Origin: a bacterium
GTDB lineage: Bacteria; Patescibacteriota; Microgenomatia; Levybacterales; UBA12049
Length of the DNA stretch: 64,000 nt
Direction of reading: 5' to 3'
NCBI GenBank assembly: GCA_021777565.1
Contig: JAJYDJ010000001.1
Location: 24,431 to 88,430, forward strand
The position numbers were made by a program, and so were the translations under genes. Positions 713-32,926 of this stretch are shown piece after piece; the stretch's first letter is position 1; each line of letters begins with the position of its first letter. Below the pieces are notes generated by a model. The model saw only the letters and a list, made by a program, of their open reading frames with translations. It had not been told where the DNA came from and did no database searches.

Positions 713-2011
713 ATGGCTTACTCCTTTGGAAAGGGAGCTATGCAACATAAACGATTTATTCTCGAAAATGGTCTGAGGGTTATTGCTGTGCCTATGCCAG
801 GCATCGCCAGTGTGACGGTGATGGTCTTGGTGGGTGCTGGTAGCCGCTATGAAAAACGATCAACCAGTGGTATTTCTCACTTCCTTGAACACATGGCCTT
901 CAAAGGCACAGAAAAGCGCCCTAGTGCTCTTGGAATGGCAAGCCTGATAGAAGGAGTGGGTGGGGATTTTAATGCCTTTACAGGCAAAGAAGTGACAGGA
1001 TTTCACATCAAAGCTCAGAACACCCAGCTGGAGCTGTGCATGGACGTGCTTTCAGACATTCTGCAAAACTCACTTTTTGACCCAATTGAGATCAAGAAAG
1101 AGGTTGGGGTGGTCATAGAGGAGATCAACATGTATGAGGACAGTCCTATGCAGAACTTGGGTATTGTCTATGAACGGCTTCTGTATGGAGACACGCCACT
1201 TGGCTGGGACACCGGGGGATTTAAAGATGTCCTGAAAAAAGTGAACCGTGAGGATTTCTTGAAATACCTGAAGACGTATTATTCCAGTGACAATATGACG
1301 GTTGTGGTGGCTGGTGGGGTAACCCCAGAGCACGTAAAGAAAGTAGCTGATACCTATTTTGGTAGTTTGAAACAGTTTGATACACCAAAACTACAGTTGG
1401 TGTCAGAAAAACAGGACAGTCCTCGGGTTTTTATTAAAAGACAAAAGACTGAGCAGGTGCATCTGAGTATTGGATTTAGAACTGTGGGCCTTGGGCATCC
1501 TGACCAATATGCTCTGGACGTGTTGGCGACCATTATGGGTGGCGGAATGAGTAGTAGGCTATTTGGTGAAGTACGTGAAAAACACGGACTGGGCTACTAT
1601 GTGCGTACGACCAGTGATAATTATCTGGATTGTGGCACGATCGTAACGAGTGCCGGGGTAGATAAAAAGAAAGCCTACCAGGCAGTAGAAATTCTCCTTA
1701 AGGAGATTAAAAAGATCGCGATGGAGGGTGTGACTGCCGAGGAGCTGCAAAATGCCAAAGAAATGATGAACGGACACTTTGTACTGGAACTTGAGGATAG
1801 TCATGATGTGGCATCATTCTATGCACATGAAGAAATACTTGAGAAAGAACTCCTGACACCGGAGGATGTTATCGAGAAAACCAATGCCGTGACGCTAGAA
1901 CAGGTCAATGCAGCCGCCGCAAAATATCTGATCAAAGAGACACTTAATCTTGCTATCATTGGCAATTTTGCCAGTAGTGAAACATTTGAAGAGATGGCAA
2001 AGGCATACTAG
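713..2011 (+). CDS. M16-family zinc peptidase (insulinase-like)
   Basis: 432-aa ORF carrying the inverted zinc motif HFLEHMAFKGT (HxxEH) near the N-terminus. Length is typical of the family. Confidence 0.75.
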   Translation: MAYSFGKGAMQHKRFILENGLRVIAVPMPGIASVTVMVLVGAGSRYEKRSTSGISHFLEHMAFKGTEKRPSALGMASLIEGVGGDFNAFTGKEVTGFHIKAQNTQLELCMDVLSDILQNSLFDPIEIKKEVGVVIEEINMYEDSPMQNLGIVYERLLYGDTPLGWDTGGFKDVLKKVNREDFLKYLKTYYSSDNMTVVVAGGVTPEHVKKVADTYFGSLKQFDTPKLQLVSEKQDSPRVFIKRQKTEQVHLSIGFRTVGLGHPDQYALDVLATIMGGGMSSRLFGEVREKHGLGYYVRTTSDNYLDCGTIVTSAGVDKKKAYQAVEILLKEIKKIAMEGVTAEELQNAKEMMNGHFVLELEDSHDVASFYAHEEILEKELLTPEDVIEKTNAVTLEQVNAAAAKYLIKETLNLAIIGNFASSETFEEMAKAY

Positions 2012-2057
2012 TGATCTTCTTCTGGACAACAAGAACTAACTTCGATATACTTATCTT

Positions 2058-2528
2058 ATGCAAACAAGTCGTTGTGTAGTACTGGTAAAACCAGACGGCG
2101 TCCAAAGAGGACTGATTGGTGAAATTATTCACCGCTTCGAAAGAAAAGGACTTCACATGATCGGGCTGAAGATGATCGCCCTTGATGATGAAACACTGAG
2201 TGATTGGTATGTTGAGCACAAAGATAAGCCATTTTTTGGTGATTTGAAGAAATTCATGTCATCCAATCCAGTCGTTGCCATCCTTTGGGAAGGCATTGAA
2301 GCATCAGTCGCGATCCGCAACATTCTTGGTTCTACCAAAGGACGTGAAGCAGCACCTGGTACCATCCGTGGTGATTTCTCTATGAGTAAACAGTACAACA
2401 TCGTGCATGCATCAGACAGTGCAGAAGCAGGAGACCGTGAACAGAAATTGATCTTCAAAGATGATGAGATCTTCCCATGGAAGAAAATGAACCTTGATCA
2501 AATCTACGCTCCAGACGAAATGGAATAA
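2058..2528 (+). CDS. ndk: Nucleoside diphosphate kinase
   Basis: 156 aa. VLVKPDGVQRGLIGEIIHRFERKGL and NIVHASDS (active-site His) are canonical NDK motifs. Confidence 0.85.
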   Translation: MQTSRCVVLVKPDGVQRGLIGEIIHRFERKGLHMIGLKMIALDDETLSDWYVEHKDKPFFGDLKKFMSSNPVVAILWEGIEASVAIRNILGSTKGREAAPGTIRGDFSMSKQYNIVHASDSAEAGDREQKLIFKDDEIFPWKKMNLDQIYAPDEME

Positions 2529-2578
2529 GTCCTTTCCTCTTTATCTTTTCTCCCGATTGTTCTAAAATACATGTATAT

Positions 2579-2617
2579 TCCGCGATAGTCCGCCAGCTGG
2601 CGGACAGGAAGCTGTTA
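2579..2617 (+). pseudogene. Orphan 5' half of a tRNA-Asn-like gene (acceptor 5' strand, D-arm, anticodon stem-loop through position 37), then broken
   Basis: tccgcgatag...caggaagctgtta is identical to the 5' acceptor strand and anticodon stem/loop (GTT) of the intact tRNA-Asn at 2869. It has a different but self-complementary D-arm (gtcc/ggac). Identity ends exactly after anticodon-loop position 37, 2 nt before the ATG of the GIY-YIG ORF. Confidence 0.55.
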
Positions 2618-2619
2618 TT

Positions 2620-2868
2620 ATGTGGTATGTATATGCCATTTATAACAAAGAGAATAGTCAAATATATATTGGTCAAACATCGAATATTGATCGGCGGTTA
2701 AGTGAACATAATAGAAAGATTGGTAATCACTTTACTGCTAAATACAATGGAGATTGGAACCTAATATATGCGGAAGAGTGTTACTCAAGGCGAGATGCAC
2801 TTAAAAGAGAAAAAGAATTAAAAAGTTATCAGGGGAGAATGTTTATAAAAACATATATTCCCAAATGA
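2620..2868 (+). CDS. GIY-YIG nuclease superfamily protein (YhbQ/UPF0213-like, 82 aa)
   Basis: MWYVYAIYNKENSQIYIGQTSNIDRRLSEHN gives the GIY...YIG core with a conserved Arg and Glu. Size and pattern resemble E. coli YhbQ. The stop codon abuts the tRNA-Asn 5' end. Confidence 0.7.
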   Translation: MWYVYAIYNKENSQIYIGQTSNIDRRLSEHNRKIGNHFTAKYNGDWNLIYAEECYSRRDALKREKELKSYQGRMFIKTYIPK

Positions 2869-2943
2869 TCCGCGATAGCTCAACGGCAGAGCAGGAAGCT
2901 GTTAACTTCAAGGTTCCAGGTTCGAATCCTGGTCGCGGAGCCA
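2869..2943 (+). tRNA. tRNA-Asn (anticodon GTT), with encoded CCA
   Basis: Manual fold gives a 7-bp acceptor tccgcga/tcgcgga. D-stem is gctc/gagc. Anticodon loop is ctGTTaa with U33 and A37. T-arm is ccagg-ttcgaat-cctgg. Discriminator G is followed by CCA. Confidence 0.8.
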
Positions 2944-4389
2944 GAGTTGACGATCATTGCAATTGATGATCTCGTCAAAGGGTTTTAGCGCGTCATATCG
3001 GACTGTTCTACCTTCTAGTGTAAGGTTCGATAGTACGAACTTGAGTAACTGCCTTTTTTCTTCAACTTCTGAACTCATAAATAGATCGTATGCACGATTA
3101 GCTATATCCAGTATGTATTTCGTGGTGATAAAGTAGTTATCTTCTGCATCACTCAGAAGTGCCAAGCGTGACCCAATTTCTACCTTTTTATCACTCAGGT
3201 CTTGGAAGAATTTGTCATATTGATCCTCAGTAATACGCCCTTTTAGTCTATCCAAATACAGATTGTCCATCATTGTACTCGTTTCTTGTTGTTCTTTGGT
3301 CAGTTTCTTATATTGCTCATTGTGCAAGTCCATTTTTCCTTGGTGAACGCTATTAAGATTGTCTACAACCTGCCGTACTACATGTTCTGGTAGTTGTAGT
3401 CTCTTGAAGACATTTTCGAACTGCTCAGTAATAGAGGCCTCTGTAAGCCATTCTGCGCTATGTTTTCCGTTATATTGAGTACAATGATAGTAAACAATAC
3501 CTTTGTGCTTTTCTGGAGTCACTGCAAGCCCACATGTAGCGCATTTAATAAGGCCACGATAGGCATATGGTTTGCCAGCAAACTTATGCGGTATCTTATT
3601 GTATCCTGCCTTGATTCGTTGGACTTGGTCAAAAAGTTCTTGTGTAATAATCGGTTGGTATTTGTGATGATAGTATTTCCCATTCCACTTCATCATACCG
3701 TAATAAAATGTATCCTTGAGGATCTTATCTATAAATCCTTGTGACCACTTGATGCCATAATCACGATCAAGTTTCTCTCGTAAAGTCATCATGGAATATG
3801 CACCTGTGGCATAGAGCTCATATGCTTGTTTAACAATCTTTGATTGGAAGTCTTCAATCACAATCTCAGTTTTATCTTTTGCTATGGGAACTCTTTTATA
3901 GCCGTAAGATGGTCTGCTCGGATATGTACCCATTCTGAGCATTTGCTCTTGAGCTCGTTTTACATTGTCGCTGATAGCATCGGAGTAATATTTAGCGAGG
4001 CCTAGACTGATACTGAAGTTGAATTTCTCTACAGCTGATAACTGGCTATTGATTACTTGTCCGTCGGAAACAAAATGTAGTTCAATTTCATCCTTGAGTG
4101 CTTTGTCGTATAATAGTGAAACACGTTTATCAAAGACATTACGTGATAGTCTATCTACCTTATCAAAACACACTGCCACTTTCTCTTTTTGTTCAATCAC
4201 GTAATCGAGTATGTTATCAAAGTCACTACGCTGTGTTTTGTATGCACTTTCATCAAAACTGAATTCTTTGAGCATCTCAAATTCCTTATTTTGACCATAC
4301 TTTTTCATCCTAGCCATTTGAGCAGGAAGCGAGTTGTTGGCTTCTTTTTGTTCTTCTGTTGATACTCGTGCAATATATATGCTTTTCAT
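2908..4389 (-). CDS. Large serine recombinase (integrase). The 3' end overlaps tRNA-Asn antisense
   Basis: N-terminal resolvase motif YIARVSTEEQ carries the catalytic Ser. 493 aa with a Cys-rich zinc ribbon CATCG...YYHC and a coiled-coil region. The C-terminal tail is the antisense translation of the tRNA T-arm and acceptor. Confidence 0.8.
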   Translation of the reverse strand: MKSIYIARVSTEEQKEANNSLPAQMARMKKYGQNKEFEMLKEFSFDESAYKTQRSDFDNILDYVIEQKEKVAVCFDKVDRLSRNVFDKRVSLLYDKALKDEIELHFVSDGQVINSQLSAVEKFNFSISLGLAKYYSDAISDNVKRAQEQMLRMGTYPSRPSYGYKRVPIAKDKTEIVIEDFQSKIVKQAYELYATGAYSMMTLREKLDRDYGIKWSQGFIDKILKDTFYYGMMKWNGKYYHHKYQPIITQELFDQVQRIKAGYNKIPHKFAGKPYAYRGLIKCATCGLAVTPEKHKGIVYYHCTQYNGKHSAEWLTEASITEQFENVFKRLQLPEHVVRQVVDNLNSVHQGKMDLHNEQYKKLTKEQQETSTMMDNLYLDRLKGRITEDQYDKFFQDLSDKKVEIGSRLALLSDAEDNYFITTKYILDIANRAYDLFMSSEVEEKRQLLKFVLSNLTLEGRTVRYDALKPFDEIINCNDRQLWLRDQDSNLEP

Positions 4390-4466
4390 AGTGTTTGTTT
4401 ACCTACTTTATCCTGGACAGAATTTTTCCGTCCAGTTGTAAAATAGATAACTTCATCTCGTTATCA

Positions 4467-5144
4467 TTACTGAGTAAGGTGTTGGATAGCGTAATCTGCC
4501 TCTGCTTGCGTAAACTTTTCACCAGCATTAGATGTTAATTGGTCATGAATAGCTGATGGTGACATACTCATAGTATCTTGATAAGTCTTTGCTTTAGCTA
4601 GGGCGTTTGCATTCCAATCTGCTTTTACATTATCTACTGCATATTGTGCAGCGTCTGCCGAGAACTTTTCGCCATAGTCTGAGACTAACTGGTCATATAC
4701 GCCTCTTTTAGACATGTGCATGGTGTTAGCGTAAGTAGTAGCTTTGTTTAAAGCGGATGTATATTCCGCTGGCACACTTGGTTGTTTGTTTGCACTTGTT
4801 GCTGTTGGACTACTATTATTAGTTTTATCCTGTTGGACTTGTTGGCTATTTGTGTCAGGTGAGCTCATGGTAGGAGTACCTGAAGCACCAGCCATAGTAC
4901 CACCAATACCTAACAAGACAAAAAAGACTATTATCTTTAATACTCTTGATAGCTCAAAATTAGTCTTTGTTTTTAGGAACTTCACCGCTGGAGGGAAAAT
5001 AACCAAGCCTGCAAGAAGAGTAAATATACCCGTCGCTGGCTTACCAAATAGTTCACTAAGACCACCTATAACTAGTATCCCTCCTAAGCCCCAACCGAGA
5101 ATAAGTCCAAGCCCTATTTTATTTGTTTTCTTATCTGTTTCCAT
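4467..5144 (-). CDS. Ltp-family (phage superinfection-exclusion-like) membrane-anchored protein with two Ltp repeats
   Basis: N-terminal transmembrane helices and a Ser/Thr/Gln-rich linker. Two tandem repeats, ...VYDQLVSDYGEKFSADAAQYAVDNV... and ...IHDQLTSNAGEKFTQAEADYAIQHL..., match the Ltp repeat pattern QL..EGFS..EA.YAV. Confidence 0.5.
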   Translation of the reverse strand: METDKKTNKIGLGLILGWGLGGILVIGGLSELFGKPATGIFTLLAGLVIFPPAVKFLKTKTNFELSRVLKIIVFFVLLGIGGTMAGASGTPTMSSPDTNSQQVQQDKTNNSSPTATSANKQPSVPAEYTSALNKATTYANTMHMSKRGVYDQLVSDYGEKFSADAAQYAVDNVKADWNANALAKAKTYQDTMSMSPSAIHDQLTSNAGEKFTQAEADYAIQHLTQ

Positions 5145-5228
5145 TACATTTTCACCTCCTTTCGTATGTATTGTGACTTATATTCCGTAGACTAATAATC
5201 CACTTTTCTCTGATTATAGACTTGAAGC

Positions 5229-5447
5229 ATGAGCAAATCAACCCTATTAAGCAAAAAGTTTGGGGAAAGGACACGATCCTTGCGAAAACAATTGGGAATT
5301 TCCCAAGAAGAGCTAGGTTTTCAAACTGGGCTCGATAGAACCTATATCTCTGGTATCGAAAGAGGAGAAAGAAACCCCTCGTTAAAAAACATAGGCAAAC
5401 TTGCCAGAAAATTAAAAGTTTCATTGAAAGAATTGTTTTCATTTTAG
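5229..5447 (+). CDS. XRE-family helix-turn-helix transcriptional regulator (Cro/CI-like)
   Basis: LRKQLGISQEELGFQTGLDRTYISGIERGERNPSLKNIGKLARKLKVSLKELF is a classic HTH_3 pattern. Confidence 0.8.
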   Translation: MSKSTLLSKKFGERTRSLRKQLGISQEELGFQTGLDRTYISGIERGERNPSLKNIGKLARKLKVSLKELFSF

Positions 5448-6571
5448 TTAGGGAAATAGTAAGGACTTTTATAATTCGTGAGTTTCATTTGCTCGAATGT
5501 ATCTAAATAGTGTCTAACTAAAACAAAAGGACTCTTTGTTGTAGGGAGGTGAATATTATTTGTCTCTGTCATAAGTCTTTGCCAGCTTCTGTCGCGGGAT
5601 TTTCCAAACAGTTCTTTTAATTCTCGTAATGTATAGGTTTTTGTAGCTTCCATGAGCCCAACAGTTTGCAGTGCTTTAAGCATTCCCATCTTTGGATTGC
5701 TAACTATCAGATCGCTGAGTAATTGAGGAGTTGTTTTGTGCTTGTAATCAAGAATTTTGGGTATGCCTGCTTCTATTGTATCAAGGTAATAAAGGAGAAC
5801 TTTTTGTGAGATGTCCTTATTGAAGAGTTCCTTGAATGTCAGTCTTGGACTTAGACTGATAATACCAAAAAGTTGTTTCATTTTTTGTCTATTATTTAGG
5901 CGAACTTCCATACGAAGAACTTCAGGAATGGTATAACGTTTTTGATCAAAGAGATGGAGTTGTGTGGCATTGTCCTGTTCAATAGCTCGCTTCTCGCTAA
6001 TTCCTGCTGCCTGCAGATCTTTAATTTTGTCATAAAAAGCTATCTCGTATGAGTTGGCATGTATTTTATAACTGTATCCGTCATTTCTGTAATCAGTCTG
6101 GTTGATGTCTAGTGAACGTGTAACATAGGCCTCCTTTATTTTACTGATAAGATAATGAGGTGTGATGCCATCAGTAAGTGGAATGTTTTTAGAATAGTGA
6201 ATTGTGGAGACGGGCGCATTTATGAGTATTTCATAGAAAACTTTGACCCCCATTTCTTTCAGTCTACCTTGAAGGGCGAGTACAACTTTCTCAAAATTAT
6301 CCTCAGTGAGTTCATCAAAGTTGTTACCATAGAGTAGTTTCGGGGCAGAAAATTCGATAGATAGTGTACTTTCACTTCTGCCTGTGATATTAAATCGCTT
6401 TGTGAGTGTCAAACGTGGTTTGTATATCCCGTCCTTGAGTTCTGATTTAGTTGGATTCTGTACGAGCGTAAAATAGCCACGAGAAGCGTTTTGCCTTTCT
6501 CTTTGAAATAATGACAAATCAGTGAGCCAGAACATGCTGCTACTCAATGTGAGCTTTATTGTGTCTACCAT
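5444..6571 (-). CDS. Putative rolling-circle replication initiator (Rep_trans-like)
   Basis: 375 aa. LRMEVRLNNRQ and IAFYDKIKD resemble the WRVEIELKRD and IRIYNK blocks of pT181-type RepC (Rep_trans family). Weak, read by eye only. Confidence 0.35.
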   Translation of the reverse strand: MVDTIKLTLSSSMFWLTDLSLFQRERQNASRGYFTLVQNPTKSELKDGIYKPRLTLTKRFNITGRSESTLSIEFSAPKLLYGNNFDELTEDNFEKVVLALQGRLKEMGVKVFYEILINAPVSTIHYSKNIPLTDGITPHYLISKIKEAYVTRSLDINQTDYRNDGYSYKIHANSYEIAFYDKIKDLQAAGISEKRAIEQDNATQLHLFDQKRYTIPEVLRMEVRLNNRQKMKQLFGIISLSPRLTFKELFNKDISQKVLLYYLDTIEAGIPKILDYKHKTTPQLLSDLIVSNPKMGMLKALQTVGLMEATKTYTLRELKELFGKSRDRSWQRLMTETNNIHLPTTKSPFVLVRHYLDTFEQMKLTNYKSPYYFPN

Positions 6572-6839
6572 AGGGATTCATTACTTCTTCAAATTTCTCG
6601 ATAACTACTTTTTCAAGAATGGCAGCCGTCTCCTTTCTGATGGGATAAAATATATTGATATTCGCTATTCCTGTTTTTCTCGTTGGGTAGGTGAGTCTGT
6701 ATCCGCCTTCAGGACGTGTAAATATGCCTATAGAGCCAAGATAAAGACATCCATTGAACACAACGCTAGCAAACCCAACAAGGCCGTTGACTGGCTTTAT
6801 AGGAATAACTTGTACTTCGGTAATCATTACTTCTTGCAT
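6540..6839 (-). CDS. SpoVG-family protein
   Basis: ITEVQVIPIK...GLVGFASVVFNGCLYLGSIGIF..PEGGYRLTYPTR...NIFYPI follows the SpoVG pattern (V.V..I....LKAFASV.FD..FVV.D..V..G..GLFVAMPSR......DIAHPI). Confidence 0.55.
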   Translation of the reverse strand: MQEVMITEVQVIPIKPVNGLVGFASVVFNGCLYLGSIGIFTRPEGGYRLTYPTRKTGIANINIFYPIRKETAAILEKVVIEKFEEVMNPYGRHNKAHIE

Positions 6840-7161
6840 CTTTTGTTTCCTTTCGATAACTTAATACCTCTTTTGATGCATTCACTTAGTTGTTGTTTGT
6901 ACATTTCCGTGAGCAATAGCATCAGTTTTTCCTGAAATTGTTCCATTTTGCTTCCTCCTTTCTCGTTGGTCAATTTGTATAAGCAATTGAAAAAAATCTG
7001 TCAAACGTTTTAAACCATCTGCAGGTAGGACATGACCATCGGCAGGTAGTATTTGAGTTTGCTCAATTGGTTTTATTGCATTGCTTGTTTCCATTAAGCA
7101 AAGTTTATGAAAAGTGGATCGTACCTAATCGTAGAAGTTCCGTGTACGGAAAATTTTGAAG

Positions 7162-8862
7162 CTAAACTGACTTTTTATATATCGGATTTATCTTTGCGTG
7201 ATTATAGTCATACGACAGGAAGTCAGTAATGCCAGCTTTAGCTAAAGTAATTTCTATGCCACGACACGCCTCGTAATAAATGTTCTTTGTGTCCATTGTC
7301 TCATCAGTCATAGCGCCTTCTAATTCATCAACTGCTTCAGCATAATAAATGCCCTTTGGTTTCTTTATAAGTAATTTGAGCAGTGCAAGTTTCCTTGTAT
7401 CCTTTTTGAATTTTGCCATTTTGCCATTTATATCCAGCGTTGTAGTTTCATCATTGAAGGTGAATGGAATATGGTTCTTAATCTCATTTTCTTTAATTTC
7501 AGGTTCTTCTGCTAAGCTCATTGTTTCAAACTGCGCTATCTCATTGATGAGTTGCCTGTGTGCCTTGTGGAGGTATGTAATATAGTTGTCATAAACAAAT
7601 ACTTGCATTTGGTCATAGGTTGTATCCTTCAAAATGCCCTTAATTTCTTCTATAAGATGGGTCAGGTTCATTCCCTCAAACCATCGTTGGTTCTTGACGA
7701 GCTCTGAGCGCATTCCTTCATAGTCATTAAACATTTCATAAAACAGGCGTAAGTATTCCCAGGCGTTCCAGCCTCGTGTTTCTCTGAGACGTTGCATTTT
7801 TTCTAACTCAGCCTTATATGCATCATTTATTTCTAATGCGCGCCATTTGGTTGCCCTTTTCCCGTCATGTTGTTCTACCCCAAGGAGATCAAGGATAGTT
7901 TGGTTTATTGGATCTTGCCTAAAAGCATTCCAGCTTAATGTTTCGATATGTCCAAAAATACTCAACCATCCTTCTGGGTCTCCCATAACTTGTATGGTAC
8001 CTGCTCTGATTGAGAGGATTTCTCTTATATCATCTTTTTCGGAGGGATCATCTGATTGATACGTTTCTAGTTTAGGTATAAGGGCTTCTATGTATTCAAT
8101 AAGCTCGTTTTTGTATTGCTCGGCTGTTTCATAGTCAGCCTTTTTATGTACATAAAATACATCTGACAGTTGAGCTAACGTGTCGGTTGTAAGAATGTAG
8201 TTCACATATTCATAAATTGCTAAGAAGAATGGCTTGGTAGGCTTTGCGGTAAGTGCCTGTTGGTATATTGCCTCTAGATTTTGTATCCAAAGGCCTGTAT
8301 TCACTTTTTTTGTTGATTTACCAGATGCGTTAGTATTAGTGCTATGTGTGTAGGGTATATGTGCGTCTTGAGACGTATTGGAGTGTTCCTTATTATCATC
8401 TGAGTCATTATGCTTTGTGTCAGACCCTTTCTCTTCTGTTAGTTTGCTTTGTGACTGAATAGTATTTCCTGGGTGCAAATCTGATATGTCTCGAATAAGT
8501 GGTACGCTATATCTCGTGGGTACTTTGCCTGTAAATTCTTGATATTCTGGTTCACTTTGTGTTTTCAGAAAGTAATCGCTAAAAGAGGGAAGTAGGTCAA
8601 TGTGATAACAGCCATCGTCAGCGTGCTCATACGGATCATGTTCATCAAGCCATGAAGTTTCCCTTTTGGGTGCTTTGATGACCTGTAGAATCAGTTCATC
8701 GTGTTCCAGCTTGGCAAATAGCTGGCGTAATTCAACAGTACTGTATTTACGATTGAGATCATTTGTTGGATTTATAATCAAAAGTTCATTAGAAGGAGCG
8801 ATTGCTCTTGCATCGTTAAGAGCATCTAATAGAAAGTAGAGTTTTTGTTTGCCACTCATCAT
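7162..8862 (-). CDS. Hypothetical protein (566 aa) in island 1
   Basis: Long uninterrupted ORF in an AT-rich region. No recognisable motif and no Walker A. Confidence 0.5.
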   Translation of the reverse strand: MMSGKQKLYFLLDALNDARAIAPSNELLIINPTNDLNRKYSTVELRQLFAKLEHDELILQVIKAPKRETSWLDEHDPYEHADDGCYHIDLLPSFSDYFLKTQSEPEYQEFTGKVPTRYSVPLIRDISDLHPGNTIQSQSKLTEEKGSDTKHNDSDDNKEHSNTSQDAHIPYTHSTNTNASGKSTKKVNTGLWIQNLEAIYQQALTAKPTKPFFLAIYEYVNYILTTDTLAQLSDVFYVHKKADYETAEQYKNELIEYIEALIPKLETYQSDDPSEKDDIREILSIRAGTIQVMGDPEGWLSIFGHIETLSWNAFRQDPINQTILDLLGVEQHDGKRATKWRALEINDAYKAELEKMQRLRETRGWNAWEYLRLFYEMFNDYEGMRSELVKNQRWFEGMNLTHLIEEIKGILKDTTYDQMQVFVYDNYITYLHKAHRQLINEIAQFETMSLAEEPEIKENEIKNHIPFTFNDETTTLDINGKMAKFKKDTRKLALLKLLIKKPKGIYYAEAVDELEGAMTDETMDTKNIYYEACRGIEITLAKAGITDFLSYDYNHAKINPIYKKSV

Positions 8863-8978: not shown

Positions 8979-9536
8979 CTAACGCCCCTGCGTTTGTATG
9001 TCTTGTATAATCAATTTTCTGATTTCTTCCGTTTTACTTGTATTATTTTGCTTCGCCTTTTCTTTGAGGAATTGATCTAATTTTTTTTCAAGTACAAGGT
9101 TAAACCTCGCGAATTGATCATTTTCTTCTGCCCACTTGAAGAAGTCCTTAATAATTTGGTCAATTGTGTCTACAGAATAGGTTTTTCTTACCAAATGTTT
9201 CATTTGCTCACGTGAAATAAACGATCCAATATTGGAGTTTGTATCTTTAGGGGTTAATAACAAAACAGGGATGTTTTCCTCAAACGCTATGGACATTTGT
9301 TGGCCAATAGAGGAAATATCAGATGTACATTCAAGTATTACGGCATCAGCAGACTTGATTGCTTTTAGGGTTCTTTCATACATGTCTGATAACCCTAATT
9401 CTTTACCTAAACTCTCTTCTTTAATCCAATCTCTGAGGATGATGCCTTGATTTTTTATTATTGCTTGCCTTATTTTTTTATAAGACTCAGGATTTTCTTT
9501 AAATGCAGGCAATGATCCACCAAAGTGCACTTTCAT
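8979..9536 (-). CDS. Nucleoside 2-deoxyribosyltransferase-like (LOG/SLOG-superfamily Rossmann) protein
   Basis: 185 aa. GSLPAF...NQGIIL..W...S.G.E.G..DMYER.L..I..ADAVILECTSD.SSIGQ.M.IA.E..IPVLLL matches the fold pattern of nucleoside 2-deoxyribosyltransferase-like (Nuc_deoxyri_tr2/3-type) proteins. Confidence 0.45.
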   Translation of the reverse strand: MKVHFGGSLPAFKENPESYKKIRQAIIKNQGIILRDWIKEESLGKELGLSDMYERTLKAIKSADAVILECTSDISSIGQQMSIAFEENIPVLLLTPKDTNSNIGSFISREQMKHLVRKTYSVDTIDQIIKDFFKWAEENDQFARFNLVLEKKLDQFLKEKAKQNNTSKTEEIRKLIIQDIQTQGR

Positions 9537-9642
9537 TAAAGTAATTATACTACAAAGTACAATAGTACAGTTATTCTTCTTGTTGCATTTCAGAGAAACA
9601 TGATGTACATTCGGTGTACATTATCTGTTTAGGCTATTAAAG

Positions 9643-11103
9643 ATGAAGAAAGTGAATATTATAGAAATAGGAATCGGCCCACATGCCAAACGGGTATACG
9701 TTCCAGCGATCATAAAGTTATCCCAAACTTATAACATTGAGCTATCTTTAGCTATTGATCTTAAGGAGAAAGAAGAGGATGTAAAGTCATACTTTAGCTC
9801 AGTAAGTATTGCTCCTCAACTGCTATTCGTTGATCCATTTGATGGTGACCTTCCACAAGATCTTAAAAAGGCCCTAAATGACTTTGTAAAAGTAAATCAA
9901 ATTCAGGCTGTCATTATCTCAACAGAGCCACGCTCACATTATGTGTATGCGAAATGGGCATTAGATCAAGGTCTCAACATCTTAATGGACAAGCCTATCT
10001 CAACAAGAGAAAATGTTGTCACAGATATTGATGCAGCTCTAGGCATACGTGAGGAGTATAACGATCTTTTGAAAAAATATGTAAGTTTACAAAAAAGGAA
10101 GCAGACAGCATTTACTATAAATGCTCAACGTAGATACCATGATGGTTTTGAACTGGTCTCTAGTTTACTTAAAGAAATTGCCTCTAAAACGAATTGTCCT
10201 GTTACTTCAATACAGTCCATGCACTGTGATGGGCAATGGAGATTACCTTCAGAAATTGTCACTCAAAAATACCATCCCTATGGAGAAGGATATGGCAAGG
10301 CTTCCCATAGTGGGTATCATATCTTTGATATTGCTTATACCTTCTATAAGTCCTCGTTAATCACTGGTAAGTTGGCTGACTCAGCAGAAGTCTATTCGTC
10401 CTTTATTCAACCAAATGGCTTTTTGTTTCAATTGAGCGAAGCCGATTATGCACGATATTTTGGAGAAGAATATAAGAAAGTAAAACTGTACTCTGATAAA
10501 CAATTAAAGAAAAAATACCAAGGATTTGGCGAGATGGATGCGTTTTCCAATATAAGATTTCTAAAACAAGGTGAAAATGTCTGTAATATTTCAATCAACC
10601 TTCTTCACAATGGATTTGCTAGAAGGACATGGATAAAGCCAGGTAGCGATTTATATAAAGGAAACGGTAGAGTGAAGCATGAATATCATAATATTCAGCA
10701 AGGACCATTCCAAAATATTCAAATTCACTCCTATCAATCAAACGACAAACATGAGACAAGCACAGAACAAGACTACGAAATCGGGGGCAATAATCACTTT
10801 GATATTTATGTATTTAGAAATTTTGAAATGACAGGAGATGATAAACCATTAAAGATAATAAGGATGAGTGATTTATCAAAGAAGAATAATTATGATAAAA
10901 GTAAACTTGTGGTTGAGTTAACTAAAGAATCTGTAGTAAAAGAGTTTTTTGATTTTATTTACGGGAAGATTGGAAAGGACAAGTTAAGATCAAACATAGA
11001 CGATCATGAAATCCCTGTTAACATAATGAGTTCTGTATACAGCTCGCATGTTAACCAACAAGCAAAGAAAGACCCTGTCGCAAGATTTAAACTAAATATA
11101 TGA
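9643..11103 (+). CDS. Gfo/Idh/MocA-family NAD(P)-dependent oxidoreductase (486 aa, extended C-terminus)
   Basis: The N-terminal Rossmann domain KVNIIEIGIGPHAKRVYVPAI...AVIISTEPRSHYVYAKWALDQGLNILMDKP is typical of the family. Confidence 0.6.
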   Translation: MKKVNIIEIGIGPHAKRVYVPAIIKLSQTYNIELSLAIDLKEKEEDVKSYFSSVSIAPQLLFVDPFDGDLPQDLKKALNDFVKVNQIQAVIISTEPRSHYVYAKWALDQGLNILMDKPISTRENVVTDIDAALGIREEYNDLLKKYVSLQKRKQTAFTINAQRRYHDGFELVSSLLKEIASKTNCPVTSIQSMHCDGQWRLPSEIVTQKYHPYGEGYGKASHSGYHIFDIAYTFYKSSLITGKLADSAEVYSSFIQPNGFLFQLSEADYARYFGEEYKKVKLYSDKQLKKKYQGFGEMDAFSNIRFLKQGENVCNISINLLHNGFARRTWIKPGSDLYKGNGRVKHEYHNIQQGPFQNIQIHSYQSNDKHETSTEQDYEIGGNNHFDIYVFRNFEMTGDDKPLKIIRMSDLSKKNNYDKSKLVVELTKESVVKEFFDFIYGKIGKDKLRSNIDDHEIPVNIMSSVYSSHVNQQAKKDPVARFKLNI

Positions 11104-12458
11104 AAAGTGAACAGAACACACTTCAAGCACTGATTGATGGCCTTCACGATGGGGGTGTACAAATTGTCACAAATTTCCCTGGGTTTAAGTCTCACGAGCT
11201 ATTTAGTGGGCTAGGAGGAAAGACTACATCTATCAATGAAAAGGCTGCTTATGAAATAGCATGGGGAGCAAGTCTTGCAGGCAAAAGATCTGTTGTTACG
11301 TTTAAAAATGTAGGATTAGACGATGCAGCAGATCCATTCCTAAATTCAATGTTATTGAAAATAAACGCTGGACTGGTTGTTGTAGTATTTGATGATGTTG
11401 AGGTAACAGGCTCACAATCTCGCCAAGACTCAAGACACTACTTTGATTTCTTTGGAGGATTATGGTTTGAGCCATACTCAACAGAGTCTGCTTATGAAAT
11501 TGCACTTAATAGCTTTAACTACTCAGAAAAGCTACAAGTACCAGTTGTTATCCGACTTACAAATGAGGTTTTGTCAAAAAGTGGCTCTTATAAGAGATCT
11601 AAAATAAGGACTGCAACCAAGTCATTAAAGCATGATAAGATACGATTTGTTGTTCATCCAGTAAATGCAAAGTTACAGAATAAGGAATTAGAAAACAAGA
11701 ACCTAGAAATAAGAAAATTTGTCGAGAATTTATACAGCAAAGCTACTGCCTCAGGAGTAATTGCGTTTGGTGATTGTGAGAGAGAGATAAACGCACTTCC
11801 AATTTCTAGAGAAAATGTTTTTCAAGTATATACCTTGCCTACTCCCAATAATACTCTTAAAAAGAACTTTGCTAAATCGAAAGAAATTAAAGTATTTGAA
11901 CAAGGTACGTCATACGGAGCAGAGAAAGTGAGTGCTATCTTTTCTTCAAAAGAAGTTGTTAGTAACAGTGGCGACTTTGTCGATCACTCAAAAGGACATA
12001 TTATTACGAAAAACTATGAAACAATGTTTCAAGCATTAAAAAATACCAAGCCACAGCTCGTTGTAGGAGATTTAGGAGAATACACTATGGACAATCTTCA
12101 TTCTATTGATGCTTGTCTTTGTTTTGGATCAGCTATTAGCGTAAGTATTGGTGCTAGTCTCGCGGGGGTCAAAGATATATTCTGTATTATTGGTGATGCG
12201 GCATTTTTGCATTCAGGTAAAAACGTAATAGCAGAAGCGCTTGAGCGTAACTTAAAGCTAAATATTATCGTTATTTGTAATGGGGGCTCGCAAGGCACAG
12301 GAGGACAAAAGATACCTGGGGATCTAAAAACACAAAATAAGAGTATAATATCTTTCACTGAGATCTATGATGATTTAAATGTTAAAAAGTTTGGGGTGTT
12401 ATTTGAGCAAATGAAAAAAAGTAAACAGATGGCTATTTTGTATCTGGTAAAGAAATAA
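11100..12458 (+). CDS. Thiamine-pyrophosphate-dependent enzyme (sulfopyruvate/phosphonopyruvate decarboxylase-like or IorA-like, Pyr then PP domain order)
   Basis: N-terminal pyrimidine-binding domain. C-terminal TPP motif GDLGEYTMDNL...GDAAFLHSG...NLKLNIIVICNGG (GDG...N). Start overlaps the upstream oxidoreductase stop (ATGA). Confidence 0.55.
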   Translation: MKSEQNTLQALIDGLHDGGVQIVTNFPGFKSHELFSGLGGKTTSINEKAAYEIAWGASLAGKRSVVTFKNVGLDDAADPFLNSMLLKINAGLVVVVFDDVEVTGSQSRQDSRHYFDFFGGLWFEPYSTESAYEIALNSFNYSEKLQVPVVIRLTNEVLSKSGSYKRSKIRTATKSLKHDKIRFVVHPVNAKLQNKELENKNLEIRKFVENLYSKATASGVIAFGDCEREINALPISRENVFQVYTLPTPNNTLKKNFAKSKEIKVFEQGTSYGAEKVSAIFSSKEVVSNSGDFVDHSKGHIITKNYETMFQALKNTKPQLVVGDLGEYTMDNLHSIDACLCFGSAISVSIGASLAGVKDIFCIIGDAAFLHSGKNVIAEALERNLKLNIIVICNGGSQGTGGQKIPGDLKTQNKSIISFTEIYDDLNVKKFGVLFEQMKKSKQMAILYLVKK

Positions 12459-12459
12459 T

Positions 12460-13080
12460 ATGGAACAAGTAAGATATATACATTTTGAAGGAATGGATCT
12501 CGCAGGGAAAACTACTGCAACACAGGGCTTCATAGCTGCTGATGGAGGAACGTGGGAAATAAGAAGAAACAGCATAGCTACTGATAATCCAATATATCTT
12601 CTTGCAGATTCGTTGAGAAGAGCTGATGCTTATGATGCTGAAACGCTAGGTAATTTGTTTGTGGCTGCGCTAATGGCTGACATACGTAGTTTTGTACCAC
12701 CTACAGCTGATACGATACAAGACTCAACGATTCTTTTGCGATCACTTGCTTATCATTCAGTAAGAGGAACACCTCGAATCCCTCAAGTGCTTCAGGATAT
12801 GGTTCCTGAGCATCCACAATTCACGGCTTCGTTTCTATTTACAGCAAGTATTGATAGAAGGCGTGAAAGATTACAGCAAAGGATGCAAAGAGCACCAGAA
12901 GAAGTAGCGCCTGAAGATTTAATGGTCTTAGATGCACCAGAAAAGTTTTTGGCAATGGAAGCGCGATTGATAGACTTGTCTACAGGGATATTTCATTCAG
13001 TGGTTATAGATACAACATCGTTAACGCCAGAAATGGTTGTTGAGAGTATCCAGACAAATATGCCGTCTAGACGTGAATAG
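12460..13080 (+). CDS. Thymidylate-kinase-like P-loop nucleotide kinase
   Basis: IHFEGMDLAGKTT is the Tmk-type P-loop (FEG.DG.GKTT). An Arg-rich lid IDRRRERLQQR is present. 206 aa. Confidence 0.55.
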   Translation: MEQVRYIHFEGMDLAGKTTATQGFIAADGGTWEIRRNSIATDNPIYLLADSLRRADAYDAETLGNLFVAALMADIRSFVPPTADTIQDSTILLRSLAYHSVRGTPRIPQVLQDMVPEHPQFTASFLFTASIDRRRERLQQRMQRAPEEVAPEDLMVLDAPEKFLAMEARLIDLSTGIFHSVVIDTTSLTPEMVVESIQTNMPSRRE

Positions 13081-13102
13081 AAAATAACTATTGACCACCT
13101 TT

Positions 13103-13717
13103 TTAACTCTCAGTAACAAGATCATTAACCTTTTCAATGACAACGTCTTCATAGACTGGTTCCTTTGTCTCTAGATCTCTAAAACTGTGATCAGCACCAT
13201 CAATGTTAATGTATGTGATTTTTTTGGTAGCCAAACCTTCAAGATCGCTTTTAACTTTTTCTATGTTGCCAAACTTGTCGTTACTGCCTTGAATGACTAC
13301 AATATTTCCAGTAAATTCCTTTAGATCTACACTTCCGAGCACGTATCCTAAGATGATTACAGAATACTTTTTCTGTTCATGTATGGGTAGTTTTTTTGAA
13401 AAATAACTCGCAACAATACCACCGAGTGACTTACCTATTAGTCGAATGTGGCGATATTCTTTAATTGAAGCGTATTCAATAACTCTCTTGAGAACCTCTA
13501 ACTCTTCTTGAAGCTCTGGCCCAGAGGATTGCTCCTCGCCTCGGTCTAAATATGGGAAGTTAAATGCAATAACGCTATGCGCATTATCTTGTGAAGCTTT
13601 GAATAGTTTTTGTATAAAAGATGACTCAATCCCTTTTGACCCGCCGTGTAGGAGCACATCAAGAGTATCAGAATCTGTATTGTATGAAAAATAAAAGTTT
13701 ATACCTTGCATCAGCAA
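13103..13717 (-). CDS. Alpha/beta-fold hydrolase
   Basis: Nucleophile elbow GKSLGG (GxSxG). 204 aa. An HGG motif lies near the N-terminus. Confidence 0.6.
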   Translation of the reverse strand: MLMQGINFYFSYNTDSDTLDVLLHGGSKGIESSFIQKLFKASQDNAHSVIAFNFPYLDRGEEQSSGPELQEELEVLKRVIEYASIKEYRHIRLIGKSLGGIVASYFSKKLPIHEQKKYSVIILGYVLGSVDLKEFTGNIVVIQGSNDKFGNIEKVKSDLEGLATKKITYINIDGADHSFRDLETKEPVYEDVVIEKVNDLVTES

Positions 13718-29506: not shown

Positions 29507-29581
29507 TGGTCGGGGTGCCGGGAATTGAACCCGGTGTCTCTTCGTCCCGAACGAAGCGTGATACCGATTCACTACACCCCG
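29507..29581 (-). tRNA. tRNA-Pro (anticodon CGG), CCA encoded
   Basis: Reverse complement folds with acceptor cggggtg/caccccg, D-stem gtga/tcac, anticodon loop ttCGGga and T-arm ccggg-ttcaatt-cccgg. The 3' end reads ACCA. Confidence 0.75.
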
Positions 29582-29602
29582 TGAGTTTGGGATGAGTGTA
29601 TT

Positions 29603-31390
29603 TTAGCACAGGACAGGTATGGTACAATGAGGCCATCTGTCCTCGTAGCTCAGCTGGATAGAGCAGGCCCGTCCTAAGGGCAAGATCGGAGGTTCGAATC
29701 CTCTCGAGGACGCAGAAGACACTTTTTTATCTACAATTGTATAAATTGAAGCTAATTTTGGTGTTCCAATCTTTAATTCTTCATAAGTTGGTTGTTTATC
29801 AAATAACAACCCAAACATTGCGCCATTTTGGAGTGGATCTGTGCCTCCAAGTATCAATTCGTCTAGGTGTTCCATATAATATTTGAGGTTATTAATGAGT
29901 ACCTGTATATTTATTTGTTGCTCATCCTTTTTATCTCTCAGCACTGTTGCTTGCACTCTCTGTAACTCTAGCTTGTCTATATCTTCTTCCAAAGCCCTGA
30001 TAGCTACTTCGCTAGTAAGCATTTTTATCTTCCCTGCTAGCATAAGTTGTTGTTCTTTGATTGAGGCTACTTGTTGGTCTAGGGAGATAGTATCTTTCAT
30101 GATGCTTGCTTTTCTCTTTTCCCATTCAGACAAAAGTATTTCTTCCATTCTTTTTCTATATTTGTCTGTAAAATGCACATTTCCTACAAATGACGTTACT
30201 AGATCATGAACATCTTTCAGCTTAACACCAAAGCGTTTATGTCCTCTATTGCAATGATATGCTGGAAAGCGCTCTCCGGACTTGCCTGGAGTAGCACTGC
30301 CATAAAATTCTTTATTACATTTTGGGCAAAGGATTTGTTGCTTAAATGGGTATAGTGGATTAAGTTTATTCTTTTTCAGCTTCCATTCTTCGATTTGCCC
30401 TTTTATAACGAGTACTTCATTCGGATGGTCTTGTTGTTCAATAATTTTTACTTTGCCCCTATTGGCCTTATTAAATACCTCTATCGAGACTAATCCGCCG
30501 CCATACATTTTAATTGCTTTCCCGCCCGTCCACTTTTCTGTATTGATCCCCGCATAAATTGGATTTCTGATATACTCTTGCAATTGTTTTACTGCTAATG
30601 GTTTACCACCCGTATGCCCAATAATCTTTGTTCTGTCGTTTTTGTCGTACTTCCGTTTTATTCTGGATAAAAAACCCCTTGCATTAATTTCATAAACAAT
30701 TTCTCTATCTGATAGATTACCCTGTTCTCGTAGCTCAAACATGCGAATAAACCAAGAAGATTCTAGCGGATGAGGTTTCATTACAGATCGTAAACCGTGC
30801 GGAGTTTCTATCTTTACATTTATAAATCCCATTTGTGGCTGTCTTGTTTTATATCCTAATCTTGTATAATTAATTTCTGCACCAATCATTCGAGTTAAAA
30901 TATCTCGTACTTCTGCTTTAGCTCGTTCTGCCTCAAGTAACTCAGTTATCCAAGATGGGCTGTATTCACTCCACTTATATTGTGTGCCAAGATATGCCAA
31001 TGTATTGACTGTCTGAGAACTGATAATTCCATATGTATCGATAAGTGTAACTCCTGTCTTTGCAAATTCAGCTTTAAGATACCCATAAGTTGCACTACCT
31101 CCTCTTGTAACTCTATCTATGCTTTTAATAAAAGCAAATTTTATCTTGTTATTTTGATTTTTGCAGTATTCTATCGCTTTTATAAGAGGTTGTAGATCAA
31201 TGTCTCCACTTGCTGATTCAGTAAAATCAAATTGTTCTTTTATTACAATCTTGCAGGAATGCATTTGTTCAACACGACTTATTGCTTGGCCTACTTGCTT
31301 TTCTTGATCTTCAAGGCTATCACCGGTAAGTCCCTGTTTTTGACTTGAAACCCTACCTATGCTTATTCCGTAAAAAACTTGTAACTCCAT
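29603..31390 (-). CDS. Large serine recombinase (second copy). The ORF runs antisense through the whole of tRNA-Arg
   Basis: N-terminal resolvase motif ISIGRVSSQKQ. 595 aa with zinc ribbon CPKCN...YHCNRGH and a coiled coil. The C-terminal 36 codons are the antisense of tRNA-Arg. Confidence 0.75.
   Translation of the reverse strand: MELQVFYGISIGRVSSQKQGLTGDSLEDQEKQVGQAISRVEQMHSCKIVIKEQFDFTESASGDIDLQPLIKAIEYCKNQNNKIKFAFIKSIDRVTRGGSATYGYLKAEFAKTGVTLIDTYGIISSQTVNTLAYLGTQYKWSEYSPSWITELLEAERAKAEVRDILTRMIGAEINYTRLGYKTRQPQMGFINVKIETPHGLRSVMKPHPLESSWFIRMFELREQGNLSDREIVYEINARGFLSRIKRKYDKNDRTKIIGHTGGKPLAVKQLQEYIRNPIYAGINTEKWTGGKAIKMYGGGLVSIEVFNKANRGKVKIIEQQDHPNEVLVIKGQIEEWKLKKNKLNPLYPFKQQILCPKCNKEFYGSATPGKSGERFPAYHCNRGHKRFGVKLKDVHDLVTSFVGNVHFTDKYRKRMEEILLSEWEKRKASIMKDTISLDQQVASIKEQQLMLAGKIKMLTSEVAIRALEEDIDKLELQRVQATVLRDKKDEQQINIQVLINNLKYYMEHLDELILGGTDPLQNGAMFGLLFDKQPTYEELKIGTPKLASIYTIVDKKVSSASSRGFEPPILPLGRACSIQLSYEDRWPHCTIPVLC
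29639..29712 (+). tRNA. tRNA-Arg (anticodon CCT)
   Basis: Acceptor gtcctcg/cgaggac, D-stem gctc/gagc, anticodon loop gtCCTaa (U33, A37) and T-arm ggagg-ttcgaat-cctct. No encoded CCA. Confidence 0.7.
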
Positions 31391-31787
31391 AGCTTTATGG
31401 TAACACTATCATTTGGTAAATCTCAACTTTCCATTCTTTTGGTCGTCTAGAACACGATCTATGATAAGGTTAGCAAGTATACGCATGCGCTCTTCAATTT
31501 CTAATTCTTTTTTATTTTCTTCTAATCCTATCGTGGCGTTTTCAGTTGCAGTAGGCTTATGTATCATAAAAATGCCTCCCTCGTTTGCAGCTAGGGCGGG
31601 AGACCTAGCGCAAACCAGAAAGGCATTGACTTCTCCCGCTATTAACGAAAAAGCGCTTACAAAGCAACACGAAATTCGTGCTACCGTGTAAGCGCAGTCC
31701 TGCTAATCAGGGTTAGCCTCCTCGAGGTAACTTCTTCACCAATACTGTGTCAACAATTTTTGTACACTGTCAAGACCTGTTTTGAGC

Positions 31788-32676: not shown

Positions 32677-32719
32677 GCTCTAGGTATAGCAAACTTTTTT
32701 GTCACAAGGCGCAAGGGAT

Positions 32720-32926
32720 TTATTCAAGGAGATCTTTTGGAGATACTTTTAAGGCTTTTGCTAGCTTTTGTATTGTTTTCAAGGTTGGATTTCTTTTTCC
32801 GGCTTCAATAGCAATTATAGATTTTGGGTCTACCTTTGTAAGTTCTGCTAGCTTTTCTTGCGAAAACTTTCTCCCTTTACGTAAATTTCGCACATTCTCG
32901 CCGAGTTTTTGATAAGTATTTGTCAT
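32720..32926 (-). CDS. XRE-family HTH regulator
   Basis: LRKGRKFSQEKLAELTKVDPKSIIAIEAGKRNPTLKTIQKLAKALKV is an HTH_3 pattern. It is paralogous to the island 1 regulator. Confidence 0.75.
   Translation of the reverse strand: MTNTYQKLGENVRNLRKGRKFSQEKLAELTKVDPKSIIAIEAGKRNPTLKTIQKLAKALKVSPKDLLE

Follow-up and report, generated by a model that had tools for sequence, protein, structure and literature searches.

We describe here a five-gene cassette (positions 8979–13,717) in a 64,000-nt stretch of contig JAJYDJ010000001.1, hereafter the window, from a bacterium of the Patescibacteriota order Levybacterales; all coordinates of the cassette are counted from the first base of the window. Our analysis firmly supports this locus as a real, conserved, and horizontally mobile operon that carries its own predicted sensor-repressor. 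Each of its parts falls within a known superfamily. Taken together, they form a small-molecule pathway, for which the reading that we favor, at a probability of roughly 40% and by analogy, is the repressor-controlled oxidation and subsequent remodeling of the sugar of a nucleotide-linked substrate to yield a conflict metabolite. The genes, taken from the list of ORFs (open reading frames), and the putative regulatory sites are arranged as follows:

8979–9536, minus strand: predicted repressor gene (185 aa), DNPH1/Rcl fold with a predicted C-terminal ribbon-helix-helix (RHH) domain
9557–9569: second GTACA half-site pair, GTACAataGTACA, about 20 nt from the regulator start codon, read from the sequence
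9604–9620: putative operator, TGTACAttcggTGTACA, a pair of palindromic hexamers set 11 bp apart, its last base 23 nt ahead of the dehydrogenase ATG
9643–11,103, plus strand: Gfo/Idh/MocA dehydrogenase gene (486 aa), first gene of the operon, NAD(P)-dependent by fold
11,100–12,458, plus strand: thiamine-diphosphate enzyme gene (452 aa), IorA-like, with fused pyrimidine (Pyr) and pyrophosphate (PP) domains
12,460–13,080, plus strand: P-loop kinase gene (206 aa) of the thymidylate-kinase/nucleoside monophosphate (NMP)-kinase superfamily
13,103–13,717, minus strand: alpha/beta serine hydrolase gene (Abhydrolase_11; ≈202–204 aa), convergent with the operon

An earlier note on this DNA had reported five ORFs here, a start/stop overlap between the dehydrogenase and thiamine-enzyme genes, and a kinase gene that follows immediately. 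All of this stands: the stop codon of the dehydrogenase gene overlaps the start codon of the thiamine-enzyme gene in the sequence ATGA, and a single base separates the thiamine-enzyme stop from the kinase ATG. Four of its five superfamily assignments likewise proved right when examined with Pfam and other profile models and by structure prediction. The same five genes, whose conservation as a neighborhood the earlier note had proposed to check, are grouped in Ca. Shapirobacteria (locus L010), in two metagenome contigs (L090 and L092), and in a 203-kb JGI contig. On a broader scale, the dehydrogenase–thiamine-enzyme pair is adjacent in ≈19 of the 26 family loci, mostly with a 4-nt overlap, and a Tmk-like kinase gene comes after the pair in 13 loci. 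Most of the remaining loci without the pair end at a contig edge; two of them, L096 and L097, have upstream sequence and no dehydrogenase gene. Hosts of the pair include lineages of the candidate phyla radiation (CPR; Shapirobacteria, Paceibacterota, and Saccharibacteria), Planctomycetota, Lentisphaerota, and one gammaproteobacterium. The thiamine enzyme is present in only ≈14 of 185,579 GTDB species representatives (the best match, at 49% identity, being from Ca. Shapirobacteria) and is thus patchily distributed. The regulator and the hydrolase are limited to the clade of the window, that is, the window itself, L010, L090, L092, and the P0009 contig.

The putative operator is conserved as well. 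A TGTACA-N5-TGTACA element precedes the dehydrogenase gene in all four independent regulator-bearing loci (the window, L010, L090, and L092), with no other occurrence across the 2.3 Mb of sequence examined. The second half-site pair at 9557–9569, close to the regulator start, is a possible autoregulatory site. Scans for sigma-70 promoters and for terminators returned matches at chance level.

The predicted regulator is where the earlier note needed its main correction. The 185-residue sequence matches no Pfam family at E ≤ 0.01; its AlphaFold2 (AF2) model (predicted local distance difference test score, or pLDDT, of 83) is matched best by Foldseek to DNPH1, MilB, and nucleoside 2-deoxyribosyltransferase (NDT; E ≈ 4e-6, TM score 0.7–0.8), and profiles of its family detect Rcl in the PDB with E = 7e-7 and 6.6e-17. 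The DNPH1/Rcl fold comprises the first ≈140 residues, and the N-terminal (F/Y)xGS loop is present. In an active-site alignment with rat Rcl, the invariant Q80 falls on the nucleophile Glu93, T56 on Asp69, and H4 on Tyr13; the catalytic Glu position is an invariant Gln in the regulator family and mostly Gln across the wider family. These Glu→Gln, Asp→Thr, and Tyr→His replacements rule out an active N-glycosidase or transferase. Residues ≈143–182 conform to an RFNLVL...SKxExIRxLI pattern, as in RHH domains, and hhalign aligns this C-terminal region to the strand-helix-helix of CopG with P = 1.8e-4 over 40 columns; weak RHH matches were also obtained to AvtR, CopG, and Arc in the PDB (E = 0.1–0.75) and to the Arc-like phrog_582 (E = 0.003). 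The AF2 monomer renders the predicted RHH region as helix.

The replaced catalytic residues, taken with the fusion to a predicted RHH domain, point to a sensor or regulator rather than a hydrolase or transferase. Because of the predicted RHH tail and the conserved operator, we consider the 185-residue protein likely to be the repressor of the operon, composed of a catalytically dead DNPH1-fold ligand domain and a predicted RHH DNA-binding domain, with the dead pocket serving as a putative ligand sensor. The earlier note had called this protein deoxyribosyltransferase-like, a description that is correct for the fold by both structure and profile and incorrect for the implied enzymatic role. A profile search of 1.84 billion representatives places it in a wider family of 599 clusters (50% identity) at E < 1e-10 and 1383 representatives at E < 1e-3, most of ≈185–205 residues, and nearly all match end to end among the 150 listed; this sizeable family, too, is without a Pfam match. 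We know of no described RHH protein with a DNPH1-type ligand domain, and literature searches turned up none either.

The 452-residue protein, judged from its sequence, is a cluster-less relative of IorA. It matches Pfam TPP_enzyme_C (PF02775; E = 1.6e-10) and the IOR_alpha model TIGR03336 (E = 1e-51; 175.8 bits versus a cut-off of 650.9), and belongs to a family of 432 homologues of ≈455 residues with an invariant Pyr-domain Glu (E47) and an invariant thiamine-diphosphate/Mg motif (G365-D366...N394). A search of the PDB with the single sequence gave no match. When the window protein and seven family members were aligned with eight genuine IorA sequences, none of the eight family sequences had the CxGCPH motif, the GDIGCY Cys, or the C-terminal 2x[4Fe–4S] ferredoxin domain, and GDIGCY is replaced by GDLGEY in six of these, including the window protein and its closest relatives. 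No iorB adjoins the thiamine-enzyme gene, the neighbors of which are the dehydrogenase and kinase genes. A bona fide IorA is thus ruled out by the absent Fe–S ligands, the absent ferredoxin domain, the lack of IorB, and a score far under the cut-off. With these ligands and this domain lost, the enzyme is unable to act as a ferredoxin oxidoreductase, and we predict a non-redox activity, that of a decarboxylase, carboligase, or C–C lyase. The fused Pyr–PP architecture proposed in the earlier note holds, and the proposed resemblance to phosphonopyruvate or sulfopyruvate decarboxylases does not: the phosphonopyruvate decarboxylase model TIGR03297 gives 25.2 bits against a cut-off of 312.5 (E = 7e-6), over ≈40 residues of the shared Pyr domain, versus 176 bits with the IorA model. 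In two loci, a gene for a glycine-cleavage H-protein-like lipoyl carrier lies directly downstream of the thiamine-enzyme or kinase gene (L095, 10,575–10,931; L096, 5767–6150), a hint of variants in which the thiamine enzyme might pass an acyl group to a lipoyl arm.

The dehydrogenase is a distinct, tightly conserved branch of the Gfo/Idh/MocA superfamily, as assigned from its sequence. Pfam GFO_IDH_MocA (PF01408) is matched above the cut-off by the N-terminal Rossmann part only, and the AF2 model (pLDDT 90) shows a complete two-domain Gfo/Idh/MocA fold, in agreement with the assignment made in the earlier note. Foldseek matches include glucuronide-3-dehydrogenase (8tdi), GFOR, scyllo-inositol dehydrogenase, DgpA, GenD2, and levoglucosan dehydrogenase, with E ≈ 1e-15 and 10–14% identity. 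The invariant residues are G10 and G12 of the GxGxxA dinucleotide-binding motif and D116-K117-P118, which contains the lysine of the (E/D)KP motif. The family has 1433 homologues, with identities of 50–63% from CPR bacteria to Chitinophaga, Pedobacter, Archangium, and Methylomonas. More distant homologues (≈33% identity) are found on plasmids, fused to a NUDIX domain in Bacillus tropicus (L174, 10,010–11,791) or to an aminoglycoside phosphotransferase (APH)-type kinase in Streptomyces (L173, 9995–12,550); these fusions indicate that a link of the dehydrogenase with phosphorylation and nucleoside-diphosphate hydrolysis arose more than once. Both plasmid clusters look biosynthetic: the Bacillus cluster encodes a nonribosomal peptide synthetase (NRPS)-like AMP-binding protein, a phosphopantetheinyl transferase, and a major facilitator superfamily (MFS) transporter, and the Streptomyces cluster, on linear plasmids, encodes a PIG-L deacetylase, an NAGPA-like protein, and Ldh_2 and LLM oxidoreductases.

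The kinase and the hydrolase were both assigned correctly at the superfamily level in the earlier note. The kinase has weak similarity to dTMP kinases, as a single sequence (TIGR00041, E = 6.6e-5; 22.7 bits versus a cut-off of 83.25) and as a family profile searched against Tmk structures in the PDB (E = 1.5e-5); it scores 16.4 with PF02223 (cut-off, 27), also matches phrog_761, and gave no match in a single-sequence PDB search. Residues D13, G16, K17, R94, R134, and R137 are invariant, among them G16-K17 of the P-loop and the LID arginines R134 and R137. Scores this far under the curated dTMP-kinase cut-offs rule out a bona fide, dTMP-specific Tmk. The hydrolase matches Abhydrolase_11 (PF20408; E = 1.3e-20) and has an intact GxSxG nucleophile motif (GKSLG), together with Asp and His residues evident in its sequence.

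A Pfam census of 126 ORFs neighboring the core pair identifies NUDIX (10), serine hydroxymethyltransferase (SHMT)-like (8), and Tmk-like (8) proteins as the commonest partners, accompanied by GNAT, cytidine deaminase, alanine-racemase-like, histidine phosphatase, HIT, HD, DegT, Cas_APE2256, and deoxynucleoside kinase (dNK)-like proteins. Mobility genes are frequent in these surroundings. Serine recombinase genes are found no more than a few kb from the cluster in four cases (the window, L006, L090, and the P0009 contig); a tyrosine integrase is found in L090, an IS3-type transposase in L092, and a decayed integrase in L172. Core GC content is below that of the flanks in most of 16 loci compared (13 with flank sequence), with exceptions that include L018, L095, and one flank of L170.

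Defense genes are found in the same surroundings. The Shedu gene sduA adjoins the cluster in L006, and in L010 the region directly upstream (1699–6504) encodes a helicase (type III restriction endonuclease/PbeA-like), an AriA/GajA/OLD-type ATPase (AriA, E = 2e-70), and a Cas4-like PD-(D/E)XK nuclease, a trio that looks like a defense system beside the cassette. The P0009 contig encodes an AAA_15/AAA_21 ATPase and an HNH protein near the cluster. In the Planctomycetota (L095, 3683–6511; L093, 55–1812 and 5943–7589; L019, 1890–2825), a gene fusing Csx3-AAA-like, cytidine deaminase, and Pol-beta-type nucleotidyltransferase domains precedes the dehydrogenase gene, which it overlaps in L095. The L093 kinase carries a fused HD domain, and the cluster there has a CARF-RelE gene beside it. 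These features suggest that the Planctomycetota variant is tied to type III CRISPR signaling. PADLOC matches near the core are to SduA, AriA/GajA, Cas4, CARF_RelE, and Csx3, all of which are neighbors in loci other than the window.

Several features distinguish the variants of the cassette. A ≈472- to 482-residue protein with no Pfam match is encoded between the kinase and hydrolase genes in L010 (11,977–13,395), L090 (7461–8882), and L092 (9983–11,407), and after a second Tmk-like gene in L172 (12,527–13,975), where there is no hydrolase; an HDAC-like deacetylase gene lies upstream of the regulator in L010, L090, and L092. Since both genes are missing from the window, the window copy looks reduced. 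In L097 (98-kb contig Ga0157369_10000151; 8025–11,096), SHMT-like and NUDIX genes come after that of a thiamine-enzyme homologue, and a dehydrogenase gene is absent. The group is surrounded by many small codirectional ORFs, several of which match PHROGs of unknown function with E = 1e-51 to 1e-60. L097 is possibly a phage genome with part of the pathway; a scan of IMG/VR found no such case.

In the window, the cassette is carried by an AT-rich island bounded as follows:

2869–2943, plus strand: tRNA-Asn
2908–4389, minus strand: large serine recombinase (phrog_95 integrase, E = 4e-62; Resolvase and Recombinase Pfam domains)

The earlier note's view of the cassette as mobile-element cargo is thereby upheld, in that a co-localized module sits with a recombinase on an AT-rich island beside tRNA-Asn. 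GC content is 0.34–0.39 across 3–15 kb, compared with ≈0.43–0.46 for most other parts of the window. The 3′ end of the gene for the 493-residue recombinase overlaps tRNA-Asn, its last 12 codons being the reverse complement of the 3′ part of the tRNA. With the recombinase 3′ end encoded within tRNA-Asn, the integration junction lies inside the tRNA gene. No att direct repeat of ≥14 nt matching the tRNA end is present within 2.7–20 kb; direct repeats are not required or expected for serine recombinases. An island-free variant of the site was not found, and all three ENA contigs examined carry the island. A gene for a small GIY-YIG protein (2620–2868) abuts the other side of tRNA-Asn. The island backbone between the recombinase and the cassette (4467–8862) encodes an Ltp-type surface lipoprotein of a prophage superinfection-exclusion family, a SpoVG-like 99-residue ORF, and proteins of 375 and 566 residues with no match in Pfam, NCBIfam, PHROGs, or PADLOC. 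A second low-GC stretch (0.31–0.38; ≈29,600–35,200) begins at a divergent tRNA-Pro/tRNA-Arg pair (29,507–29,713) and is possibly another integrated element; it encodes a 595-residue protein and several small proteins without a family match, a DUF6804 protein, and an FtsK-gamma-domain protein.

In the pathway that we favor, the regulator would bind the operator as an RHH dimer of dimers and be freed by a nucleoside monophosphate-like ligand. The dehydrogenase would then form a ketone from a secondary hydroxyl group in the sugar ring, the substrate being a nucleotide or a nucleotide-linked sugar. Since electron transfer to ferredoxin is not possible, the thiamine enzyme is expected to carry out non-oxidative C–C chemistry at or beside this carbonyl, which may be acyl-anion addition from a 2-oxoacid such as pyruvate or a ring or chain cleavage. 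The kinase would phosphorylate the product or provide a phosphorylated substrate, the hydrolase would take off a protecting or carrier group, and the end product would be a sugar-modified nucleotide for use in conflict, antiviral or antimicrobial. The nucleotide-centric part of the conflict system suggested in the earlier note fits the data better than a sugar or phosphonate pathway, given the NUDIX, SHMT-like, and Tmk-like partners and the domain fusions; its defense part is not established and amounts to guilt by association.

A number of observations weigh against this assignment. The chemistry is proposed from fold-level analogy, ligand-released repressors are more typical of catabolic operons, and most of the solved structures nearest to the dehydrogenase are those of catabolic enzymes. 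Dehydrogenase homologues of 52–57% identity stand alone, without the thiamine enzyme, in ordinary-looking chromosomal surroundings in Chitinophaga and Archangium, and further close homologues are found in Pedobacter genomes. The Streptomyces surroundings (PIG-L deacetylase, NAGPA-like protein, and APH) resemble sugar or aminoglycoside rather than nucleotide chemistry. No model in PADLOC-DB 2.0, where the earlier note had proposed to look, matches any of the five cluster proteins or five window neighbors, and none of the core proteins searched for turned up in phage collections (the thiamine enzyme in IMG/VR; the dehydrogenase, kinase, and regulator in INPHARED). Finally, the association with defense genes could merely reflect common residence on mobile islands.

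A serious rival, less probable than our favored reading, is a pathway induced by its substrate (a nucleoside, sugar, or cyclitol) for catabolism or salvage, in which an IolG-like step would form a ketone, an IolD-like step would open or cleave the ring, and an IolC-like step would phosphorylate the product. A repressor with a small-molecule pocket, encoded divergently from its operon, is the classic catabolic layout, and glucuronide-3-dehydrogenase, DgpA, levoglucosan dehydrogenase, and scyllo-inositol dehydrogenase head the structural matches; the standalone Archangium dehydrogenase gene adjoins that of a pyrimidine-nucleoside phosphorylase, with a cytidine deaminase gene close by, and NUDIX, HAD, and histidine phosphatase proteins could supply nucleotides to such a pathway. 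However, the SHMT-like, alanine-racemase-like, GNAT, aminotransferase, NRPS-like, and MFS partners, which recur, suggest biosynthesis, the dehydrogenase scores only 20 bits with the IolG model (cut-off, 355), and the family matches of the thiamine enzyme are IorA-like; IolD falls among the acetolactate-synthase-like enzymes and IolC among the PfkB kinases. Neither a transporter nor a downstream aldolase accompanies the core consistently in the loci and census examined, and Csx3, CARF, and other defense-gene surroundings are unexpected for a catabolic operon. Unlikely, in our judgment, is the biosynthesis of a non-nucleotide sugar or aminocyclitol secondary metabolite (aminoglycoside- or kanosamine-like), with the kinase and hydrolase used for self-resistance or pro-drug handling. 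The Streptomyces linear-plasmid dehydrogenase–APH fusion with its deacetylase, NAGPA-like, and oxidoreductase neighbors favors this, as do the Methylomonas dehydrogenase, encoded with TauD, a glycosyltransferase, and an APH, the presence of GenD2 among the fold matches, and the HDAC-like deacetylase and GNAT partners in some loci. Yet the Streptomyces homologues, at ≈33% identity and without the thiamine enzyme, may be a separate branch; the partners of the true pair are NUDIX, Tmk-like, dNK-like, cytidine deaminase, nucleotidyltransferase, HD, and HIT proteins, and the regulator sensor domain has a nucleoside-monophosphate-binding fold.

A narrower and quite improbable version of our favored reading casts the cassette as an inducible antiviral nucleotide-analogue factory, in which the dead DNPH1-like pocket would sense an infection-specific NMP, the operator would be freed, and the dehydrogenase, thiamine enzyme, and kinase would turn an ordinary nucleotide into a 3′-keto or 3′-C-branched nucleoside triphosphate that terminates viral polymerases. 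DNPH1 and MilB recognize hydroxymethyl-dUMP (hm-dUMP) and hydroxymethyl-CMP, modified nucleotides of the kind made by phages. Were this version true, it would parallel viperin and CMPK2 by entirely different chemistry, and immune nucleotide synthesis would gain its first step that depends on thiamine. A phosphonate or sulfonate route centered on phosphonopyruvate or sulfopyruvate decarboxylase, an alternative raised in the earlier note, is effectively refuted: the faint decarboxylase similarity noted above is far exceeded by that to IorA, and neither phosphoenolpyruvate mutase nor any other phosphonate gene occurs in the window or in the ≈25 related loci. Hardly credible at all is a chance juxtaposition of five unrelated cargo genes, which is refuted for the regulator, dehydrogenase, thiamine-enzyme, and kinase genes by recurrence of the gene set in at least five independent loci, by the conserved start/stop overlaps, and by the conserved operator. 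What can be said for it concerns the hydrolase, which is encoded on the opposite strand and varies in position among relatives, where the extra ≈472-residue gene is inserted.

No named pathway that we considered fits this combination of genes, for which the earlier note could name none either. None of the curated families, defense models, or literature found describes the dehydrogenase–thiamine-enzyme pair, the cluster-less IorA branch, or DNPH1–RHH regulators, and literature searches on Gfo/Idh/MocA enzymes with thiamine and nucleosides, on keto-nucleosides, and on Csx3 with deaminases found nothing relevant. The pair comprises a new type of thiamine enzyme, a branch of the 2-oxoacid:ferredoxin oxidoreductases without iron–sulfur clusters, joined to a Gfo/Idh/MocA dehydrogenase, a pairing that implies a thiamine-dependent reaction of a new type, with an oxidized sugar as its substrate. 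The regulator represents a large family of small proteins (at least 599 clusters) that would reuse the DNPH1/deoxyribosyltransferase fold as a sensor on a predicted RHH domain. The pathway as a whole is modular and horizontally transferred, is found amid nucleotide-processing enzymes, and resides repeatedly in mobile and defense islands, including a fusion with the type III CRISPR accessory domain Csx3. If its product is a modified nucleotide, the cassette would open a new chemical way of making nucleotide analogues with antiviral or antimicrobial action and offer a ready ligand-responsive switch; if it is catabolic, it would be a new form of nucleoside or sugar degradation in CPR bacteria with minimal genomes, a useful cargo for scavengers.

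Comparison with known systems places each component in context. IorA and related 2-oxoacid:ferredoxin oxidoreductases are the closest sequence relatives of the 452-residue protein (24–28% identity) and share with it the Pyr–middle–PP domain order, the catalytic Glu, and the GD...N motif, whereas the cassette enzyme lacks CxGCPH, the GDIGCY Cys, the 2x[4Fe–4S] domain, and iorB, and is partnered instead by a Gfo/Idh/MocA gene. The 486-residue dehydrogenase shares the two-domain fold, the GxGxxA motif, and the (E/D)KP lysine with sugar and cyclitol dehydrogenases of the Gfo/Idh/MocA superfamily, and is ≈120 residues longer, with additional helical insertions. DNPH1/Rcl (an hm-dUMP N-hydrolase), MilB, and the nucleoside 2-deoxyribosyltransferases have the fold and the N-terminal "FxGS" motif of the 185-residue protein, which differs from these enzymes in its Gln in place of the nucleophile, its altered Asp and Tyr, and its added, predicted RHH domain. 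The C-terminal pattern aligns, with weak similarity, to CopG of the CopG/Arc/MetJ repressors, and short tandem repeats 11 bp apart adjoin the regulated gene; in contrast to those repressors, the cassette protein carries a large N-terminal ligand domain. The myo-inositol trio IolG–IolD–IolC follows the same order of chemistry (Gfo/Idh/MocA dehydrogenase, thiamine-dependent C–C cleavage, and kinase), although none of the three cassette enzymes is orthologous to its counterpart. The pairing of the dehydrogenase with aminotransferase and NUDIX proteins may recall Pur10 (ATP 3′-dehydrogenase), Pur4, and Pur7 of puromycin biosynthesis; the puromycin pathway has no counterpart of the thiamine enzyme. 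Viperin modules, too, differ from the cassette, which is without a radical-SAM enzyme and has a thiamine enzyme with no counterpart there. Viperins linked to NMP kinases nevertheless set a precedent for a nucleotide-modifying enzyme accompanied by a kinase (bioRxiv 10.1101/2023.09.13.557418), and in viperin–CMPK2 modules, as in the cassette, the nucleotide modifier is genetically linked to a kinase of the Tmk/CMPK superfamily.

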